64,000 bases of DNA from IMG/VR virus record IMGVR_UViG_3300031227_000013; one strand, given 5' to 3'. The DNA comes from a virus. Position 1 is the stretch's first letter. Each line of letters starts with the position of its first letter. The notes beneath the pieces are model-generated. The model was not told the DNA's origin. It saw nothing but the letters and a program-made list of their open reading frames with translations, and made no database searches. This document shows positions 5,781-52,249 of the stretch, one piece after another. The translations under genes were made by a program, and so were the position numbers.

Positions 5781-5979
5781 AGTAACACCAGCCCTTTCCT
5801 TCTATAAACATTATAGGGTGTTTACTCCCTATATTCAATACAAGAATCCTCCCTGCGTCTTCTCTAATATTCAGTACTTTTAAACTTATACCAGCCGGGC
5901 TGGTATATACTTTATCTCCTACACAGAGCTGTCCCCTATATATAATAGGTTGTTGCATTTCGTTATATAATGTAGTCAT
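5773..5979 (-). CDS. Family A small protein, copy 17
   Basis: LYNEMQQPIIYRGQLCVGD...EGKGWCY. Confidence 0.85.
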   Translation of the reverse strand: MTTLYNEMQQPIIYRGQLCVGDKVYTSPAGISLKVLNIREDAGRILVLNIGSKHPIMFIEGKGWCYYK

Positions 5980-6242
5980 CGTATACCCCAGACCTTTCTT
6001 TCTTTTTTAAGGATAAAATAAGGATAGTAATACGGGACTTGAGCCCCGTGATCCAGCATAAATCCCTGGTCATCTCTGTCTATACATATTTTATAGACTT
6101 TACTTACATGTTGCTTCATACCACCTACAAACATATTGTTCCAGCCCTTCTCGAAGCTCTCGCAGTCTCCTGTAACCAATACAGAGTCTCCTACCTTCAG
6201 TCCGGACGCTTTGTGTCCTTTCAGATATTCTTCTTTACTCAT
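5976..6242 (-). CDS. Hypothetical protein inserted in the array (KOW/SH3-like LKVGDSVLV motif)
   Basis: 88-aa ORF coupled by ATGA overlaps; lacks the family A N-terminal motif. Confidence 0.6.
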   Translation of the reverse strand: MSKEEYLKGHKASGLKVGDSVLVTGDCESFEKGWNNMFVGGMKQHVSKVYKICIDRDDQGFMLDHGAQVPYYYPYFILKKERKVWGIR

Positions 6243-6487
6243 ATTGTATACTCCCTTCTATATTCCCATATCCAGCCCCTTCCTCTTATAAAGAATATAG
6301 GTATTGTGTAGGCTGTGTTATTATACTGCAGATTTGCCTTAATCCCTTTTATACTCTTTATTTTAGCCGGGAGTATATCAGCCCTCCCCACAGACCATCT
6401 TTTTCTATATACAGAGTCACCATTATTCAGCTGCCCTTTATATAGTATGGGCTGTCCATTTATATTATGTAAAACTCCCTGTTCCAT
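6239..6487 (-). CDS. Family A small protein, copy 18
   Basis: LHNINGQPILYKGQLNNGD...RGRGWIW. Confidence 0.85.
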   Translation of the reverse strand: MEQGVLHNINGQPILYKGQLNNGDSVYRKRWSVGRADILPAKIKSIKGIKANLQYNNTAYTIPIFFIRGRGWIWEYRREYTI

Positions 6488-6518
6488 TAGTAGTCTCCTT
6501 TACTGTTGTATAGTAGTA

Positions 6519-6716
6519 TCAATAGGATGTTTGTATATACCAGCCCAACCCTTTTTTATATATTATAGGGTTTTTATCGGGACCTACATCCAGTATGATT
6601 AATGTACCTGTATCTCCCTTTAATGAGATAACTGTAAAGGTTATATTCCCCCACAGGGTAACACTCACTTCATCCCCTACACTTAACTGCCCTTTGTGTT
6701 TAACGGGCTGTCCCAT
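6519..6716 (-). CDS. Family A small protein, copy 19 (frame stays open upstream to another ATA-AGT)
   Basis: MGQPVKHKGQLSVGD...KGLGWY; upstream in-frame ATA AGT GAA TAC ATA TTA CAT AAC AAG. Confidence 0.8.
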   Translation of the reverse strand: MGQPVKHKGQLSVGDEVSVTLWGNITFTVISLKGDTGTLIILDVGPDKNPIIYKKGLGWYIQTSY

Positions 6717-43935: not shown

Positions 43936-44008
43936 GTTCTTCCTTTCTTTTAGTTTGTTCCTCTATAGAGTATTAAAAAAACCCCGTGTCGCTCCGGGGT
44001 TTACATTG

Positions 44009-44350
44009 TTAGTCTACACTAGGCCAATGAAGGCCTAACGTATTTTTTGCGCGCTCTTTAGAAGCAGCGCGCTTCTGAATTTTCTCAAAAGAGGCTACTC
44101 TACAAACAGAGCAGCAGGGTTGTCTAAACCCTGCGAGAGACATTTTTACTGCCTCACGATGAGAAGGTGCTTCTGCATGCCCACAGGCATACAGATATGT
44201 CCCGTCGTCTTGTACAACGACAGCTTCTGCCTCGGAGAAACGGTCTCTCCAGGCCAGGTACTTCTGACTGGGGAATGTCTTCCCCATCAATTCTTCTGCT
44301 GCAGATACTAGATCCGCTTTTTCCTCTTGTGTCATATAATTTCCTTTCAC
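44009..44350 (-). CDS. Hypothetical protein with CGH...CSVC motif
   Basis: 113-aa ORF followed by a terminator at 43975-44001. Confidence 0.55.
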   Translation of the reverse strand: MKGNYMTQEEKADLVSAAEELMGKTFPSQKYLAWRDRFSEAEAVVVQDDGTYLYACGHAEAPSHREAVKMSLAGFRQPCCSVCRVASFEKIQKRAASKERAKNTLGLHWPSVD

Positions 44351-44486
44351 TTTTTACGGAAATCCAGAGCGACCAGGATTCCCATTATTATAATTATAAT
44401 GCCTACCACGCCGGACGCGATAAACATTATTAACTTTAGGAGATTCACCATGTTATACAAAGTCCCCTCGAATTAATATCCATTAA

Positions 44487-44519
44487 TATATAATGCCAAA
44501 AAAACAGCACTAATTAAGC
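44487..44519 (-). promoter_or_regulatory. Bipartite promoter-like motif
   Basis: CTTAA-N15-TGGCA-TTATA; a further partial copy at 44675-44707; each precedes a short hydrophobic ORF. Confidence 0.7.
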
Positions 44520-44702
44520 ACCTAAAAAAGAAACCCTAAGGCTTCCTTTTAACTCTGCCGAGCCAACAAACGGCCTCAGCAAAGATTTTAATGCATACTA
44601 TCGGTATCACTACCGACGAAGATGCCGCTATTATAATCAGGAAATCCAACATATTAACCTCCTTTGCGGGTTAATATATTATGCCAAAAAAATGGATTTT
44701 TT

Positions 44703-45050
44703 TTAAAACGTAAGCAAGTCCACTATGTGGTGTTCCGTAAGATATTCGTCCAGCATAAAATCAGGACAGTTATCTATTTTTTCCGCAGCCATCTTAATAA
44801 GGGCTTCCAGCCGACGGTATCGAGATGGCTTATTAACTGTACTGCTAACCATATTTAATACCTTATCAGTTGAATAATAAGATATACTGAATTCATCACT
44901 TCTTAAATGCAGAGCTGCGTACAACCCGAAGGATTTATCAGAAATAAAAAACCCGTCAACTCCATCTAAACTATATCTTTTAAGAACCTGTTGATGAAAC
45001 TGTCTGTCCTTCAGTATGTTCTCATAATCATCATTTGAAATAAAAACCAT
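44703..45050 (-). CDS. Hypothetical protein, weakly related to family C
   Basis: DNCPDFMLDEYL resembles DDCPNYVMEDYL in ORF 38907. Confidence 0.55.
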   Translation of the reverse strand: MVFISNDDYENILKDRQFHQQVLKRYSLDGVDGFFISDKSFGLYAALHLRSDEFSISYYSTDKVLNMVSSTVNKPSRYRRLEALIKMAAEKIDNCPDFMLDEYLTEHHIVDLLTF

Positions 45051-45187
45051 ATTTATCCTCTCGATTCATGACGTGTGTATGGACTTTTCCTGTTCTTCTT
45101 ACGTATAACAGGGAGTGTTCCATATCGACTCTTTTTTCTGAATATCTTATTTAATAATTTTTTCATTCCATCTCTCCTTTAAATGTA

Positions 45188-45229
45188 AAAAGGGTCCGGA
45201 AGAACCACCATCGAAATTCTTCCGGACCC
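45188..45229 (-). terminator. Strong intrinsic terminator (13-bp stem)
   Basis: GGGTCCGGAAGAA-N12-TTCTTCCGGACCC-TTTT. Confidence 0.8.
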
Positions 45230-45290
45230 GCCTGAAAGGAAGGAGTCAGCTCAAGCTCCAGCAGCATACTCCCCTAGATTAATTCTTATT

Positions 45291-45659
45291 TTATGCGCCT
45301 GCTAAACAATCTCTTACAGCACTTAGCGCTTGTATCGCATCATTCATTTTTTCCACTAACGAAGGATCAGTCCTCTGCCCCTCATCAAATACTTCCACAG
45401 GAGGTGTAACTACCGCTTCCGAAATACCCCCGCTTTTAGGGATTGTGTATCCGGCTACTGCATAAATATCTTCGTACACAGTTGTAGCCTTGGATAATAT
45501 TATTCCTTCTCTCTTAATTAATTCTTCGATCTTTTTCCGAGGTACTAATACCCCGTCTACTGTTTCTATTTTGAAAGGGACAATATCTTTTTCTTTTTTA
45601 AGTCCCATCTTTTTTAATTCTTCGTAAATACTATTCGAAACAAAAAATGCTTCGTCCAT
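45291..45659 (-). CDS. Hypothetical protein
   Basis: 122-aa ORF with AGGAG RBS. Confidence 0.6.
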   Translation of the reverse strand: MDEAFFVSNSIYEELKKMGLKKEKDIVPFKIETVDGVLVPRKKIEELIKREGIILSKATTVYEDIYAVAGYTIPKSGGISEAVVTPPVEVFDEGQRTDPSLVEKMNDAIQALSAVRDCLAGA

Positions 45660-45679
45660 AAACCCTCCTGGGTTTTAAG

Positions 45680-45994
45680 TTAAACTTCACCCTCTTTTGC
45701 TAAGTAAGCTGCAGTACTGGAATCAGAATCCATAGCATGTCCGGGTGTTTCATCCTCTATTGTTTCCTCGTCGGATGATGCTTCTAATTCTTCTGTTATA
45801 ATTCTTCTTATACACTCGTACATATCTGCCAGCCATATGTTGGATTCGAGGGAACTGTCTATATTTACCAATGCTTCAGGAGCCACTTCAGGATCCATAT
45901 TATCAACATCAATCCCCAGTTCTCTCAGCCTCTCCACCATTGTATCTTCCAGACATTCAAGTATACAATTAAGATTAAACAATTCTCCTGTCAT
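45680..45994 (-). CDS. Acidic hypothetical protein
   Basis: 104-aa ORF. Confidence 0.6.
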   Translation of the reverse strand: MTGELFNLNCILECLEDTMVERLRELGIDVDNMDPEVAPEALVNIDSSLESNIWLADMYECIRRIITEELEASSDEETIEDETPGHAMDSDSSTAAYLAKEGEV

Positions 45995-45999
45995 AATAG

Positions 46000-46035
46000 A
46001 AAAAATGGATCCCTCTAAAGGGAGGAGAGGGATCC
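46000..46035 (-). terminator. Intrinsic terminator closing the ubiquitin-like operon
   Basis: GGATCCCTCT-N9-AGAGGGATCC followed by ATTTTTT on the minus strand, 7 nt after the Ubl stop. Confidence 0.8.
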
Positions 46036-46042
46036 AGTTATA

Positions 46043-46456
46043 CTAGTTGTTTCCCTTGATCTGTTTGACCAAGAAAATATTTGCACCGTCAACAACTGCT
46101 GTGTCTTCGGATACGGTACTACCATTCATCTTAATCTCAAAGCCTTCGGCGTCGAGATCTGCAAGTTCCAGTACGGCCTCAATGGTCGTGCCAGATTCAA
46201 CAGCTAATTCCGAGAGTGTTCCAGGAACTTTACCAACTGTTACTACGCATTGATTTCCTTTGATCTGCTTGACCAGGAAAATATTTGCGCCGTCAGGAGC
46301 ATCGTCTGTCAAAGATGCGGTACTGCCGTTGACTTTAATTTCGAAACCCTCTGCATCGAGGTTTCCTGCTGCCAGGGCATCTGCAACTGTAGCGCCATTT
46401 TCGACGGCTACTTCTGAAAGTGTTCCTGGTACTTTTCCTACTGTGATTTGTTTCAT
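46043..46456 (-). CDS. Tandem two-copy ubiquitin-like (beta-grasp) protein, each unit ending LVKQIKG-N
   Basis: Two ~68-aa repeats (TVGKVPGTLSE.AVE.G.T...L....L.AEGFEIK.NG...DGANIFLVKQIKGN); ThiS/MoaD/Ub-type GaTv..aL and vNG patterns. Confidence 0.85.
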   Translation of the reverse strand: MKQITVGKVPGTLSEVAVENGATVADALAAGNLDAEGFEIKVNGSTASLTDDAPDGANIFLVKQIKGNQCVVTVGKVPGTLSELAVESGTTIEAVLELADLDAEGFEIKMNGSTVSEDTAVVDGANIFLVKQIKGNN

Positions 46457-46470
46457 TACTTATTCCTTTG

Positions 46471-47160
46471 TTATAACTTAAAGGTTTGTGTTATAGACAT
46501 ATATGGCCGCATGCCGTATATGATTTCGTTCTCGATTGGGTCTCCATTATTATGCTTCAGCATCTGCCAAACAGCTATTGTGGATATATTAACTGCTGTA
46601 GCAATTACTGAAACAGAAGAGCCACAGAGAGATTCTTCCGCCGTATCATCATCATATAGAGTAGCCTCCCACTTCTCTGCCTGATTAAGCATTGTCGGAA
46701 CGAAAGAATAAATTCTTCCGTTATCATCCCCCATTCTTGTTTCTACTATTAAATTAACACCGAACTTCATCTTTAGAAATTCAGTGAAAATTTCCTTACG
46801 TGAAGACATTGTATCTGTCAGGAGAAATACAATATTCCCCGGGACATATCCGCAACCCGTCTCCACTTTTTCATTGACAGCTTCTATTTCAATTTCCGTC
46901 AATTGTTTTATGAGCTCTTTAAGAGCGTCAACTTTGTACTTCCCTACATCAGACAGTCGGAACATTTGATTAGGAATATTGTGTTCTTCCACCTTATCAT
47001 AATCGAACACACGTATCTTTTTCACTCCCATCTTAGCGAGTAAATAAGCTACGTGTGAACCTGTTGCTCCAGCCCCTATTATGTCAACCTTCTTTGTAAA
47101 CAAATTAGGTTTAAAAACAGATAGCTGTCTATTATAGGAGATACTGGCAGGTATACCCAT
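46471..47160 (-). CDS. E1-like / ThiF-family adenylating enzyme
   Basis: IIGAGATGS, DYDKVEEHNIPNQ, GKYKVDA and LLTD motifs; no CxxC zinc pairs; single Cys in EESLCG. Confidence 0.92.
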   Translation of the reverse strand: MGIPASISYNRQLSVFKPNLFTKKVDIIGAGATGSHVAYLLAKMGVKKIRVFDYDKVEEHNIPNQMFRLSDVGKYKVDALKELIKQLTEIEIEAVNEKVETGCGYVPGNIVFLLTDTMSSRKEIFTEFLKMKFGVNLIVETRMGDDNGRIYSFVPTMLNQAEKWEATLYDDDTAEESLCGSSVSVIATAVNISTIAVWQMLKHNNGDPIENEIIYGMRPYMSITQTFKL

Positions 47161-48306
47161 CAGTCAATTTCCTGAAAGGAATACTTACCGACCTTCTTAT
47201 TTTTAGGAGGACGACCTGGTTTTCTCTTTTTACCTACTTTTTTTAAAGGAGTAGCTCCTTCAACTCCATCGTCCACATTATCCAATGGGTATGTCTTATG
47301 AACATTGTTTCCTCCTACAGGTCTTCCCTGATAGCCATTATTTCCATAGCCATTAGGTGAACCACCATATCCATGCTCGGAACCATGTCCTTGAAAACCA
47401 ATCCCACTCTGGTTCATACCCTGGTGATACCCAGCGGCGTTTTTTAGGCCACCATACACCATCTTGGTAACCTTTTCCTCGATCTGTCCTTTCCAGTATT
47501 CTACCTTAGGATCATCATCTTCATTTACCTGAATACTCCATGGGGCATCCTTGAGAGCAAGCCCTATATCATACTGAAAAATAGCGAACCCATATTCGCC
47601 TTTATTGTTTCCGATACATCTTATAAAGAATCTGTTTAGAGCTCCTTCGGAACCCTTAAGATTATCAGAAAATACTTCCATCTGTGTGTTATCCTGGCCG
47701 GACGGACCAACTCCGCCGCTTATGTGTGACATTCTGTTACTTAATAACCTACTAATGTAGGCGGGTATCCAGTTTCCTGATACCTCTCTATGTCTCCATA
47801 GAGATCAGACTATCGCTCGGCCCTCAGCATTACCTGTAGGGTTCTTCTCGCTTAGTCGTTGACCGTCCTTTAAATATCTTAAAGGTTCGGCAGGATTACC
47901 CTCGGCTTTACCGTTAGGGCTTCCCCCTCAATCAGAGAAGATTTTTCTAGTGACTGTTACCAGTCACGGGGCACTCACCTACTGCTTACGCAGCGTCACA
48001 TATTTTATGCCCCCAAAGGCGAATATTATTAGCTTCATCGGTTGTCATATCTCCGGAAGTTATAAGTTCCCCCATTAATTCAGCCAGTCCATCAGGAGTT
48101 ATTTCGGTTGTTCCACCGTTAACATCCTGTTGGGGAAGAGGTAATATATTATAAACTAAAAATACATTATCCTCTTCTTTACGTACAAGACCTAACCATC
48201 CTATTTCATCATCGCAGTTATTAATTATAATGTCCATGTCTTTTTTGACCTCAGGTAGTAATACTACCGAGGGCATTCCTTCATTTAACCATTCGACTGT
48301 AGGCAT
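47160..48306 (-). CDS. JAB/JAMM metallopeptidase, 289 aa after splicing: join(48306..48007, 47729..47160)
   Basis: Exon 1 ends DEIGWLG...LWGH; exon 2 starts SHISGGVGPSGQD; joined they give E...HSHx7SxxD exactly. Confidence 0.9.
47730..48006 (-). ncRNA. Group I self-splicing intron (277 nt, no ORF) inside the JAB gene
   Basis: 5' exon ends in U, intron ends in G; P1 U.G pair possible; P3 TCTTCTC/GAGAAGA; P7 GACTA/TAGTC; P9 TCTCTATG-GAGA-CATAGAGA; GNRA-capped peripheral stems; removal restores frame and catalytic motif. Confidence 0.9.
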
Positions 48307-49796
48307 TACATTATGTCCTTATCTTTATCGTCACGGTCTTTCCAAGCAACAACCGTTCCGTCCTCTTTGACCAAAGGCCATCTGTTTACATACTTACCAG
48401 CGGCATCGTCAACATTAACGTTTTCGAGGTAGAGTATACACAGAGCTGCTATGGCACTGTAGTTATGAGCTGCTCTGATCTGAGGGAGCGATTCCACCAG
48501 ATCTCCCAGACAGGGTTTACCATCAGGAAATACATGCGGAGCATGCATCCCTCTGGAGTTATATCCCGTAATCTGCTGAGTAGTATTTAACATTAGTATT
48601 TCTTTATTAACATCTGTAGGAACTTCAATACGAAAAGCTCCGACCTCGTGGTTAAGTTTCGTACGTGGGTCAATAACATATACTGTATCTGTTATTATAT
48701 GTACCCCGTCCTTAACAATCCGTACTCCTCTGACATGCTTCTGGGAATACAGGTCACGAATCATTTTGTTAGCTCTTTCATCAAAATTATTCGATGTACC
48801 TGCTTCAACCATCTGCATCTTTGCAGTACGATCTCTTAATTTAAGCGTCAAATGTCCCTGATGCTTTTCAATCTCTTTTGAAAGTTTATCAATTGTGTCC
48901 TGCAGCCCTTTATACTCGACTGAAAGAACATCCTCAACAAACTTTATCAGCCTTTCCCGATCTTTCTTCTCACGGGTCTTGGCGATATCAGCGACTTCTG
49001 ACTTGAGTTGCTCCGTTCCCAGTTGCTCTTTGAATAGCTCCAAAGATTTTCTGAAAATGGTGATTGCTGAAATGGAAGGCTTCTGAACCGCATCCCATAG
49101 AAAATAGAGATGATTCGGTTTAACATATTCCATTATTGCAACACCTGTCTTAGGATCATTAATTCCCACCCCACTGTCTGTAAGAGGGAACATAGGATCT
49201 TCACAGCCTACTTTCTTTCCGAATAGACTTGATGGAGGAATTAACTTACCATCAGCTCCGCCTATCAGACTATCTGCTTTAGGAGAAGACCATACTCTAA
49301 TATTCAGGTCATGCTCACAGTCCTCAGGAAGTTCAATATCCCCGTTAGGAACTGTAACAGATACATTCGTATATACATCCTGTAACACTTCTTCAACAAC
49401 TTTTATGAAGTCTTCACGACCACGTCCATCCCACTTATCGGGAGATGATTGTACTGTGATACTTCCAGATCCCGCACTTACTACCTCGGCCTCATTAGGG
49501 GCTGGAGGTGCAACGGGCGGTATATCTTCCAGAGGATCAGGAACTACTTCTTCAGCCGTTACTTCTACTTGTGGAGTATCATTATTGGTTCTTTCCCGGA
49601 AAGTTGTTCTTAGAAAAGAAATACCTTCAAACATTGTTCGTTCATCATTAAACTCTATATTCTGTCCCATTACCGGATGTACTTCTACCCGAGGTATCAG
49701 AAATCCGTCCACATCATTGATGTTGAATGTAGGTGAGCTACCAGCCCAGCCCAATTCAGTTAGTTTGTCTAGTTGTTCTCGTGTTACGAAATACAT
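48306..49796 (-). CDS. E2-like (UBC fold) protein with large N-terminal region and coiled coil
   Basis: C-terminal HAPHVFPDGKPCLG matches the E2 HPx(V/I)xxxGxxCL signature; TAATG-coupled to JAB. Confidence 0.8.
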   Translation of the reverse strand: MYFVTREQLDKLTELGWAGSSPTFNINDVDGFLIPRVEVHPVMGQNIEFNDERTMFEGISFLRTTFRERTNNDTPQVEVTAEEVVPDPLEDIPPVAPPAPNEAEVVSAGSGSITVQSSPDKWDGRGREDFIKVVEEVLQDVYTNVSVTVPNGDIELPEDCEHDLNIRVWSSPKADSLIGGADGKLIPPSSLFGKKVGCEDPMFPLTDSGVGINDPKTGVAIMEYVKPNHLYFLWDAVQKPSISAITIFRKSLELFKEQLGTEQLKSEVADIAKTREKKDRERLIKFVEDVLSVEYKGLQDTIDKLSKEIEKHQGHLTLKLRDRTAKMQMVEAGTSNNFDERANKMIRDLYSQKHVRGVRIVKDGVHIITDTVYVIDPRTKLNHEVGAFRIEVPTDVNKEILMLNTTQQITGYNSRGMHAPHVFPDGKPCLGDLVESLPQIRAAHNYSAIAALCILYLENVNVDDAAGKYVNRWPLVKEDGTVVAWKDRDDKDKDIM

Positions 49797-49958
49797 TTAT
49801 CCCTTTCTATGTTAAAATTAATTTCGTTTTATATAGATAAAGCAGATAAGGGTGGCAGGCCGTCTGGGCAAAACCCTGTTTCATGACCACCATTTTGTAT
49901 AAAAATACTCGGCCTCATATCCGCTAAAAACAATGATAGTTATATCATCTTAGTAATC

Positions 49959-49988
49959 TATTATGCCACAAAAACGCGATAAATTAAG
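49959..49988 (-). promoter_or_regulatory. Bipartite promoter-like motif upstream of the ubiquitin-like operon
   Basis: CTTAA-N15-TGGCA-TAATA, ~165 nt before the E2 start. Confidence 0.7.
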
Positions 49989-50439
49989 TTCGAAGATACT
50001 GCTCGTCACAAGTTATCGCAACAGCTAGGGCTGAATATATATCCGACTTAAATCCTTTAAGTTTACCTTTAGGTCGTTTTCCCGGAATTAGGTCAGGTTC
50101 GAATCGATCGAGTAGCTCCTGACGTATTCCACAGTCTTTAGCGGCTCCTGTGCCGCAGATATACTTTTTCTCGTCGACACGCTTTATTCTGTAGTGTGTT
50201 CCTTTAAAAGCCTGCATACATTTTCCTATAAAGAAACAGGTTTCAAAAGTCTCTTTTCCGACTCGGGCTCCATACGAACATATGGTCTCTATCGCCATTA
50301 CATCAGCCTGTCCACCTTCTACAATACCCAGCATTCTCTCATTACTTATTTTACCGAATGCATAAATTTCCTCTGTCTCATTATTATACGTAACATACCC
50401 AGATTCCGTAGTTCCGGGGTCTACTCCTAATATTATCAT
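49984..50439 (-). CDS. ruvC: RuvC-like Holliday junction resolvase
   Basis: ILGVDPG, AIET and SDIYSALAVA catalytic pattern. Confidence 0.8.
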   Translation of the reverse strand: MIILGVDPGTTESGYVTYNNETEEIYAFGKISNERMLGIVEGGQADVMAIETICSYGARVGKETFETCFFIGKCMQAFKGTHYRIKRVDEKKYICGTGAAKDCGIRQELLDRFEPDLIPGKRPKGKLKGFKSDIYSALAVAITCDEQYLRT

Positions 50440-51107
50440 GTCATTACCTTTCTTCCGGGAATATACACCTCTTCATCACTTGTTCTTCCCAGTATGTTTT
50501 TTAGTATTTCATCCATCATTACCGTATTCTGTTCCGCCACTGTATACGGACCCATCTTACAATCATACTCTTCCCCCAGCCGGTCTTCGTAATTAGTATT
50601 CAGAGGACACCGATATCCGGAAGACGCTTTCTTACTTACAAGCTTGCATATGTCCTTAAGAGGCCCTTTAAAACTAGCTAGAGTTTCTCCAAAAGATCTA
50701 CGTACAGATTCGTAGTCAGATATAGCCAGGCAGGGCTTGTAGTTCATGTACTCTTTCAGCCCGACCCAACTATTACCGGCTATCAGCTTTCTGTTCCACC
50801 AGTCATTATTGTATACTATGTAGGATATGTTATTCTCCTGCATAAGCCCGACCAGTTTATTTTCTACTACTTCGGGCAGGACAGCCTCTGCATAATAACT
50901 GTTGATAGATATTCCGGTATACTGCATGTTGCCCCTTACATTACCTCCCAGAACATATTCGTTATACAGAACTCCTTTAAGCATATAAGCTACCTGAACA
51001 ATAGCGGCGTCTGCTTTTACTGAATCAGACGCCATGTTCAATACTATATAATTATCAGGATCCTGTACCCCTGCCTTCTCTTTAAGAAACTCCCTGATAA
51101 TACCCAT
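50436..51107 (-). CDS. Possibly degenerate DnaQ-like 3'-5' exonuclease fold
   Basis: Pattern IVQVAY...YTGIS...VYN resembles DEDDh exonucleases but the first acidic residues are missing. Confidence 0.35.
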   Translation of the reverse strand: MGIIREFLKEKAGVQDPDNYIVLNMASDSVKADAAIVQVAYMLKGVLYNEYVLGGNVRGNMQYTGISINSYYAEAVLPEVVENKLVGLMQENNISYIVYNNDWWNRKLIAGNSWVGLKEYMNYKPCLAISDYESVRRSFGETLASFKGPLKDICKLVSKKASSGYRCPLNTNYEDRLGEEYDCKMGPYTVAEQNTVMMDEILKNILGRTSDEEVYIPGRKVMT

Positions 51108-51630
51108 AGCTCTCCTTACGCATAATAAACCGTTCCTTCACTTCGTGTTCGACACCCCAGTCCTTACGCTTCATCAAACTTATAAGCTCCTTCTGCAGAC
51201 CTGCTATTTCCTCAGCTCCGGGATAATTGCTATCCTTCGCGGGATACAGCTCCACCATCAGTAGACAATCGTCACGGGCTACCCGGTCTATTTCCCCCAT
51301 GGTATATGCTATCTCCCATGTGTCGAGAAACATCAGGACGTAATTAGCAAGTATTATGTTCACTGTCGACATACCTGTCGGGAATGCTTCCTTACCCAGA
51401 ACAAGTTTTTCCCCTACATCCCCTGCCATATCGTATCCGGAGATATTATGAAACCCCTGTTCCATCAGGTAGTTCGAGTTGCGTCCATTACCGCATCCAA
51501 TATCCATCACGACCTCTTCCGCCCAGGTTTCTCCTCTCTTTAGGAGATCGATCTTCTTCACCAGATAGGGGGTAGGATCTTCCCTGGAACATCTTACGCA
51601 CCATCTGTCATTCATATATTTTCGACTCAT
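51082..51630 (-). CDS. Class I SAM-dependent methyltransferase
   Basis: MDIGCGNGRN, GYD, ILANYVLMF; start reset to MSRKY at 51630. Confidence 0.85.
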   Translation of the reverse strand: MSRKYMNDRWCVRCSREDPTPYLVKKIDLLKRGETWAEEVVMDIGCGNGRNSNYLMEQGFHNISGYDMAGDVGEKLVLGKEAFPTGMSTVNIILANYVLMFLDTWEIAYTMGEIDRVARDDCLLMVELYPAKDSNYPGAEEIAGLQKELISLMKRKDWGVEHEVKERFIMRKESYGYYQGVS

Positions 51631-51631
51631 A

Positions 51632-52249
51632 TTATCCTCTATTATTATAAAACTCAGCTTCCATACAATCGTATATATACTTACCGAGTTCAGGCAGTAC
51701 ACAATTCCTCAGTACCTGCCTCTTATTCTTAATTTTATATTCCGATAGGTCGAAACCATACTTATCCTGTAGGTCAGGTATCTGTGCTTTCCTTATATTA
51801 TCCTTAGCAAAAGACTTATCCCCAATAGAAAAGTTACACCAGAACAGGTGTCTCTGCAGAACCTTATCCGGTTCGATCAGGGGAGTATAATAAGGTTTCA
51901 CATTCTCCACAACCCACGGACAATTAGCATTATACTTCAGAAATAGTATCTCCTCGTATAACTGCATATCTGGATATTTAGGTTCCGTACCTCTATACCG
52001 TACACATATATTCTGCCGGAAAGACGAATGACTCTGACACGGGGGACTGCTCCATATGAAATCATATTCTTTATAATGCAGTCTCAAATACTCATGTGCG
52101 TCCCCTATAACTATTGTGTCCTCAGGAAACTGTGTATGATAAAAACCAGCTATGTCTTCATTCATCTCTACAGCTGTCACCTCAACACCTTCGCCCCACA
52201 ACTTCCTATTTCCTCCAATTCCAGAATAATTATTCAATATTTTTATCAT
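51632..52249 (-). CDS. Short C5 DNA cytosine methyltransferase
   Basis: Motif I YSGIGG, motif IV SPPCQ, motif VI ENV. Confidence 0.85.
   Translation of the reverse strand: MIKILNNYSGIGGNRKLWGEGVEVTAVEMNEDIAGFYHTQFPEDTIVIGDAHEYLRLHYKEYDFIWSSPPCQSHSSFRQNICVRYRGTEPKYPDMQLYEEILFLKYNANCPWVVENVKPYYTPLIEPDKVLQRHLFWCNFSIGDKSFAKDNIRKAQIPDLQDKYGFDLSEYKIKNKRQVLRNCVLPELGKYIYDCMEAEFYNNRG

Follow-up and report, generated by a model that had tools for sequence, protein, structure and literature searches.

We describe a phage gene that encodes two ubiquitin-like (Ubl) units head to tail, in one operon with genes for an E1-like enzyme, a putative JAB/JAMM metalloprotease and an E2-like protein. The locus looks like a system for Ubl conjugation whose precursor is of the polyubiquitin type and in which an unusual Asn stands at the position of the last Gly of ubiquitin. 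The gene is part of a large unannotated phage gene family in which every unit carries a complete tail, proteins hold one to four units and the E2-like/JAB/E1 module is conserved. We infer from this conservation that the protein is cleaved, and it is probably a precursor from which separate Ubls are processed, whichever side of the Asn is cut.

The poly-Ubl gene and the fold of its product

The gene occupies positions 46043..46456 of the window, the 64,000-nucleotide stretch of DNA that was analysed, within a 185-kb phage whose genome is a single virus contig of 185,256 bp. These are the coordinates of the initial annotation, amended only as to strand: the gene is read from the minus strand, the plus strand of the interval being full of stops. 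Its 137-aa product (plus stop) consists of two ThiS/SAMP2-like beta-grasp units of 68 aa each and one trailing Asn. Unit 1 comprises residues 1-68 (46253..46456, minus strand) and unit 2 residues 69-136 (46049..46252, minus strand), as delimited by self-alignment, codon comparison and AlphaFold2 (AF2), which places the strands and helix of unit 1 in residues 2-63. The cap residue N137 (46046-46048, minus strand) sits between unit 2 and the stop codon. The two units align without gaps and are 69% identical (45 of 65 positions, E 3e-30). Their shared end is GANIFLVKQIKGN; both finish in LVKQIKGN and the C-terminus of the protein reads IKGN-N, so that the repeats and tails recorded in the initial annotation reappear in full. 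A two-unit repeat with identical tails is far beyond chance. The proposed processing site is the internal junction motif K66-G67-N68 (46253..46261, minus strand), which lies in a linker of low pLDDT; its terminal counterpart is K134-G135-N136 (46049..46057, minus strand).

Among the curated models, Pfam ThiS alone exceeds its cut-off on the Ubl (27.9 versus 22.5 bits), with Pfam SAMP2 at 26.6 bits (cut-off 27) and NCBIfam SAMP2 at 22.5 bits (cut-off 70). A profile search against the PDB retrieved the SAMP2 structures 5lda_B, 2l32_A and 4hrs_A (E about 1e-5 to 3.5e-6), and SAMP2 proteins are the best sequence relatives of the family among solved structures. From an alignment of 50 sequences, AF2 predicted two beta-grasp domains (pLDDT 85-91 each) separated by a linker of low confidence (residues 61-70), with a pTM of 0.47 and no fixed packing between the domains. 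Because the model shows two independent domains, a low-confidence linker and this pTM, the internal tail would be exposed as it is in linear di-ubiquitin. The beta-grasp fold and the length of the units (the class of ~65-80 aa) agree with membership in the Ubl beta-grasp clan (ThiS/MoaD/SAMP). In place of the C-terminal Gly-Gly or single Gly of that clan, Gly-Asn is found at ~85% of unit ends.

Age of the duplication and selection on the tails

Codon-by-codon comparison of units 1 and 2 gave a pS of 0.70 and a dN of 0.27, synonymous sites being saturated. The last 13 codons of the two units differ by 5 synonymous changes and no non-synonymous one (pS 0.60, dN 0). Since synonymous sites are saturated, the duplication is old and the identity of the tails is held by selection at the protein level. 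Recent duplication or gene conversion as the origin of the identical tails is ruled out by the synonymous divergence.

In the window's clade, the closest relative of a unit in other phages is the one at the same position (first with first, second with second; 53 pairs versus 11), and the two units are long-lived, distinct paralogs. Tail identity is 0.83 within proteins versus 0.51 between proteins, at 45-60% identity of the unit bodies. Such co-variation of tails within a protein is what a single cognate enzyme acting on every tail of a precursor would be expected to produce.

Copy number and tail conservation in the family

Searching 1.84 billion representatives exhaustively with HMMER (E <= 1e-3) yielded at least 460 clusters of the Ubl family at 50% identity, with length classes of about 68, 138, 206 and 280 aa. 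The positions of K-G were listed in 164 relatives, and 143 relatives were scored for unit number; 23 of these have one unit, 90 have two, 25 have three and 5 have four. In one-, two-, three- and four-unit relatives alike, each unit ends in x-K-G, almost always followed by N, and the 21 relatives without K-G have R/E/Q/A/T-G-N in place of K-G-N. The residue after Gly is Asn at 141 of 155 internal junctions and in 125 of 143 last units. It is otherwise Ala or Gly, the G-A and G-G tails being confined to minority lineages. Across 50 di-Ubls, invariant columns are limited to K66, G67, K134 and G135; across 20 tri-Ubls (27-63% identity), they are limited to K-G-N at the three unit ends and G44. The initial annotation had proposed a polyubiquitin-like precursor with a functional internal IKGN tail, and the proposal is supported by the conservation of that tail across homologs, to about 30% identity, and by the variation in repeat number from 1 to 4.

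The units of one protein are mostly 40-80% identical, and in 115 of 137 multi-unit proteins no pair of units reaches 80% identity. Near-identical units occur in 10 of the 137 (for example units 2 and 3 of P0001, the three-unit protein of L003, 96% identity) and point to recent in-phase duplication. An orthologous operon whose E1 is 59% identical encodes a 68-aa mono-Ubl with its C-terminus exactly at KGN; a single Ubl unit is apparently enough for such an operon.

A subfamily of at least 16 representatives, referred to here as Ubl-Ubl-X, has a conserved domain of ~140 aa directly after the second KGN. Its members include P0091, P0094-P0097, P0108, P0113, P0114, P0118, P0120, P0122, P0135 and P0149, and one genomic example lies at L021:8001-8873. 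The X domain had no Pfam or Atlas match. The layout recalls ubiquitin-ribosomal protein fusions, and the second tail of such a fusion would be unable to reach an E1 unless the protein is cleaved.

A tandem repeat of this kind could also be an unprocessed modifier, as in ISG15, FAT10 and the Bil/Bub Ubls, that works through its C-terminal tail alone, the internal KGN being structural, serving binding or having been homogenised. Two- and three-domain beta-grasp Ubls are frequent in Bil/Bub systems and are reported to act intact (PMC11601603). The units within a phage protein are usually diverged paralogs, as in ISG15, and the best Foldseek matches of the poly-Ubl model are linear di-ubiquitin and ISG15 (E 6e-8), with ISG15 scoring equally well. 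However, homogenisation is excluded by the synonymous saturation, and an intact modifier leaves unexplained both the internal tails, which are among the only invariant columns of the family, and the mono-Ubl that serves the same operon. Copy number shifts freely from 1 to 4 within one operon type, in phase with the KGN boundary, AF2 predicts no fixed packing between the domains, and the Ubl-Ubl-X fusions, which keep this junction ahead of an unrelated domain, would have to be cleaved there as well. We consider an unprocessed modifier unlikely and favour the processed precursor.

Position of the proposed cut

In four independent profile alignments, the Asn falls where known Ubls have their last Gly. 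SAMP2 of H. volcanii (...RLIKGG) aligns onto the family consensus ...kkiKGn in this register, and polyubiquitin aligns across its junction, ...LRLRGG/MQIF onto ...kkiKGn/aeit, although weakly, at 7-8 bits per unit. The NCBIfam SAMP2 profile extends one position beyond G135, and the Pfam ThiS profile one position beyond the Gly of P0047. Last units stop exactly at G-N in 52 of 126 cases (41%) and the remainder add 1-4 variable residues. The lineages with G-G or G-A tails use the same two positions, and some of their proteins end exactly at G-G. The number of residues ahead of the first strand, compared between unit 1 and the internal units in the alignment of 50 di-Ubls, varied inconsistently from homolog to homolog and gave no guide to the unit boundary.

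Since the Asn (Ala or Gly in the minority lineages) is never lost and is followed by nothing or by anything, it is likelier to be the end of the mature unit than a cap. Its place at the last-Gly position in the four alignments, together with the last units that end in G-N, makes a cut after Asn likelier than one between Gly and Asn. The initial annotation had regarded the Gly as masked by the Asn and had placed the JAB cut between the two; neither view fits this register, and the cut probably falls one residue later.

To our knowledge, all characterised Ubl E1s and JAMM proteases act on a C-terminal Gly, and an Asn at P1 or at the site of adenylation would be unusual. This speaks for a precursor that is cut between Gly and Asn at both sites, giving mature Gly ends, with the Asn as an obligatory P1' residue or as a cap that renders the Ubl inactive before the protease cuts. 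The Gly is absolutely invariant, the Asn gives way to Ala or Gly in some lineages, the last unit always has at least one residue beyond the Gly, and BilC exposes a C-terminal Gly (10.1101/2023.09.26.559546). Yet a mere cap would need to be conserved at about 85% of more than 300 unit ends, and lineages with G-G tails would need cutting within the Gly pair. A residue after the Gly is present in every bona fide member; the one scored protein that ends at G, P0146 of the Ubl-Ubl-X subfamily, looks truncated. Granted processing, a cut after Asn seems to have a little better than an even chance and a cut before it a little worse than even. As an account of the whole gene, release with Gly ends is rather unlikely. 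The complete reading that we put forward, a viral analogue of the polyubiquitin gene whose units are cut after Asn, is held tentatively, at somewhat less than an even chance.

The E1, JAB and E2-like genes

On the minus strand the order of the operon is E2-like gene, JAB exon 1, group I intron, JAB exon 2, E1, poly-Ubl gene and hairpin. The hairpin (46000..46035, minus strand), read from the sequence, is terminator-like, with a 10-bp stem (GGATCCCTCT/AGAGGGATCC) followed by a T run. It begins 7 nt past the Ubl stop, and a hairpin scan lists inner versions of the stem.

The E1-like protein (46471..47160, minus strand) is a ThiF-family adenylating enzyme of 229 aa with a single domain (Pfam ThiF, 73.3 bits), and its Cys178 is invariant in 10 homologs. 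A profile search against the PDB matched PaaA, MccB, ThiF and UBA5. PaaA and MccB came out on top, with a small lead over ThiF (45 versus 38 bits) that concerns the Rossmann part only. The phage protein starts ~20 aa ahead of the GxGxxG loop and MccB can be aligned only from residue ~109 onward; the N-terminal peptide-clamp domain of the MccB type is absent from the phage E1.

The JAB/JAMM gene is interrupted by a group I intron (47730..48006, minus strand; Rfam RF00028, 58.9 bits, E 2.7e-13) that sits between the codons of the two metal-binding His residues. Exon 1 (48007..48306, minus strand; DEIGWLG ... RLWGH) aligns to residues 1-102 of an unsplit homolog, and exon 2 (47160..47729, minus strand), which starts with SHISGGVGPSGQD, aligns to residues 103-190 of the unsplit homolog from locus L003. 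The splice boundaries were placed from the alignment to JAB homologs and the terminal U and G of the intron. Together, the exon products form one uninterrupted alignment with unsplit homologs, exon 1 ending in WGH and exon 2 starting with SH, and the splicing assumed in the initial annotation is borne out by this alignment and by the Rfam match. The spliced protein has the canonical JAMM motif E...HxH-x7-S-xx-D; the consensus of the homologs is DEIGWLG ... WGHSHVxMGxxPSGQD, and the window reads WGH/SHISGGVGPSGQD. Profile scores are low (Pfam Prok-JAB 17.2 bits, cut-off 25; PADLOC JAB, E 1e-4), and the profile search against the PDB gave AMSH-like sst2 only (E 0.25). In the mono-Ubl phage locus L023 (L023:5494-7281), the JAB gene is interrupted at the corresponding point, with ~900 nt between the halves and a LAGLIDADG-type ORF (5908-6645) in the gap. 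An Rfam scan of the split JAB region in L023 gave no intron at E <= 0.01.

The E2-like protein (48306..49796, minus strand) has 496 aa, of which the C-terminal ~150 aa are UBC/RWD-like as judged from invariant columns, AF2, Foldseek and VIA-align. The pattern P-H-V ... C428-x-G ... N-x2-D-x-A-G ... W is invariant in 45 relatives, and the last 151 residues were modelled by AF2 at a pLDDT of 92.6. The top Foldseek rows for this domain are almost all E2 enzymes, but at E >= 0.1. VIA-align gave Z scores of 6-6.5 to UbcH10, E2E1, E2S and UbcH5 over about 107-111 residues, and 7.0 to the RWD domain of Knl1. We term the protein E2-like, short of a proven E2. The assignments of the JAB and the E2-like protein are putative, being based on motifs, weak profile matches and structural Z scores in the middle range.

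No Pfam, PHROG or NCBIfam model matched the E2-like family, which comprises at least 134 clusters, mostly on phage contigs of ~50 kb. A word-indexed search with the C-terminal region alone returned only the protein itself, and the relatives came from a profile search. Two of them (L021:9029-10189 and L004:6558-7976) carry long C-terminal arrays of CxxC pairs that are zinc-ribbon-like. These arrays might serve as a built-in E3-like or target-binding part.

The module in related phages

The module of E2-like protein, JAB, E1 and Ubl is found in 8 phage loci. The Ubl has one unit in L023, two in the window, L004 and L028 (the last with G-A tails), three in L001 and L003, and four in L020; L021 has the Ubl-Ubl-X fusion. 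Two short contigs with G-G tails have an E1 gene immediately upstream, and wherever enough sequence is available a ThiF-family gene adjoins the Ubl gene or lies no more than 4 kb away. All contexts of the module are phage-like, with genes for DnaB, primase and SSB, a RuvC-like gene, and HNH or LAGLIDADG genes. Around its invariant Cys, the E1 reads xxC-T(E/A)R in G-G loci (L026, L022) versus SxCG(S/T)S in G-N and G-A loci; with two G-G sequences only, this association with tail type is an anecdote.

Related E1 proteins occur in cultured phages, namely PhiXhv (Xanthomonas), Ep032 (Erwinia), FpV4 (Flavobacterium) and the crAss-like Kolpuevirus/cr126_1, where they are annotated as "thiamine biosynthesis protein" (L024, which is Xanthomonas phage PhiXhv-12, 1238-4612; L025, which is FpV4). 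Upstream of the E1, PhiXhv-12 encodes an 892-aa protein with a RIHPH...SLCLG motif and Cys-rich ends. The Ubl, JAB and E2 profiles had no match in the E1 loci of L024 and L025.

The composition of the module bears on whether the Ubl might be a carrier protein with no role in protein modification, acting in sulfur transfer like ThiS/MoaD or converted in the manner of MccB from Asn to a succinimide or an isoAsn-nucleotide adduct. The unit is ThiS/SAMP2-like, the E1 is of the minimal ThiF type with PaaA and MccB as its best solved matches, and a terminal Asn is a hallmark of MccA substrates (PMC11118369). Against this, a JAB and an E2-like protein bearing an invariant Cys are constant parts of the operon, none of the loci examined has a sulfurtransferase or cofactor-biosynthesis gene beside the module, and the E1 lacks the peptide clamp of MccB. 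A carrier role is highly improbable.

For the processed precursor, we propose the following course of events. Each 68-aa beta-grasp unit bears a flexible tail, L-V-K-(K/Q)-I-K-G-N, in register with LVLRLRGG of ubiquitin and RLIKGG of SAMP2. The JAB/JAMM metalloprotease of the operon, once the group I intron is spliced out, would cut every unit boundary, most likely after Asn, that is, between N68 and Q69 and between N136 and N137. Two different mono-Ubls would be released, each with a Gly-Asn end. The single-domain ThiF-type E1 (Cys178) would adenylate the C-terminal carboxylate of the Ubl, which would then pass to Cys428 of the E2-like protein. The long N-terminal region of the latter presumably picks the targets, and the Ubl would finally be attached to host or phage proteins. 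MccB, an E1-like enzyme, adenylates a C-terminal Asn and also accepts Ala, Gly, Ser and Thr (PMC11118369). A Ubl family with Gly-Asn ends in which the Asn itself is the activated C-terminal residue, adenylated by a minimal E1 related to MccB and PaaA and possibly led through a succinimide, is conceivable though somewhat improbable.

Comparison with known systems

Like the eukaryotic polyubiquitin genes (UBB/UBC and yeast UBI4), the phage gene encodes beta-grasp units head to tail and free of spacers, with a full tail on each, a variable copy number and a short cap after the last unit. The family profile aligns over the junction of two ubiquitins with KGN on RGG, and linear di-ubiquitin is a best structural match. 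Unlike those of polyubiquitin, the phage units are diverged rather than identical, so that different modifiers would be released, and the concerted evolution that keeps polyubiquitin units identical is not seen. The tail is Gly-Asn rather than Gly-Gly, sequence similarity to ubiquitin is marginal, the gene is borne by a phage and the presumed processing enzyme is a JAMM metalloprotease of the same operon.

The archaeal SAMP2/UbaA/JAMM1 system shares with the phage system a unit of ~66-69 aa, a tail of the form ...IKG-x and the partnership of an E1 with a JAMM protease. SAMP2, however, is a single unit with a Gly-Gly end that works without an E2 and also takes part in sulfur transfer, whereas the phage system has tandem units, Gly-Asn tails, an E2-like partner and a phage context.

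The four-part set of Ubl, E1, E2 and JAB in one operon is also found in the Bil (BilABCD) and Bub systems. In Bil, the JAB pre-processes the Ubl, and Ubls have 1-3 beta-grasp domains (10.1101/2023.09.26.559546); multi-domain Bil/Bub Ubls are reported as intact proteins that occur as monomers, dimers or Ca-dependent filaments (PMC11601603). The E1 of Bil, BilD, has two lobes, with tandem inactive and active adenylation domains and a mobile CYS domain, in contrast to the single ThiF domain of the 229-aa phage E1, and the genes described here lie in phage genomes rather than in bacterial defence islands. No NCBIfam model of Bil/Bub-type systems reaches its cut-off on the module proteins. Of the PADLOC models, only those for CBASS E1-E2 match the E1, over its Rossmann region; the best E value for the JAB is 1e-4, and neither the Ubl nor the E2-like protein has a match. 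MccB with its substrate MccA, and PaaA, resemble the phage system in the ThiF-family adenylating enzyme, and the tolerance of MccB for N, A or G in its substrate resembles the variation of the phage tails. Their substrates, however, are short peptides held by an N-terminal clamp that the phage E1 does not have, they work with neither E2 nor JAB, and the product is a peptidyl-nucleotide rather than a protein conjugate.

Iyer et al. (2006) drew attention to tandem arrays of two or three Ub-like domains in bacterial operons, which they called "reminiscent of poly-ubiquitin" (PMC1779556), and Burroughs et al. (2007) considered the proteolytic release of Ubls from polyproteins to be primarily eukaryotic (PMC1949818). 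In the literature that we searched, neither phage-encoded poly-Ubl genes nor a Gly-Asn tail on a Ubl are described. Megablast of positions 44000-52000 against GenBank phages gave no match, nor did tblastn of the di-Ubl against 50,697 GenBank phage records, and searches for related loci in IMG/VR and in GTDB genomes gave no relatives. A degenerate DNA pattern for LVKKIKGN hit 15 loci in IMG/VR, none of which encodes a family member. No curated model in Pfam, NCBIfam, PADLOC or PHROGs covers the JAB or E2-like proteins above threshold.

Implications for phage biology

If the units are released, phages would possess polyubiquitin-like genes of their own that encode several different modifiers at once, and bacterial viruses would be users of Ubl conjugation, not merely its targets. 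The Gly-Asn tail poses the question whether an E1/E2 cascade can work on a C-terminal Asn. Should the Asn be the activated residue, a C-terminal succinimide route would be possible, as in microcin C synthesis. The outcome could then be an ordinary thioester and isopeptide, or else an atypical linkage, either beta-linked or a nucleotide adduct, that resists the deconjugating enzymes of the host, and phages would mark host or virion proteins with an Asn-ended Ubl.
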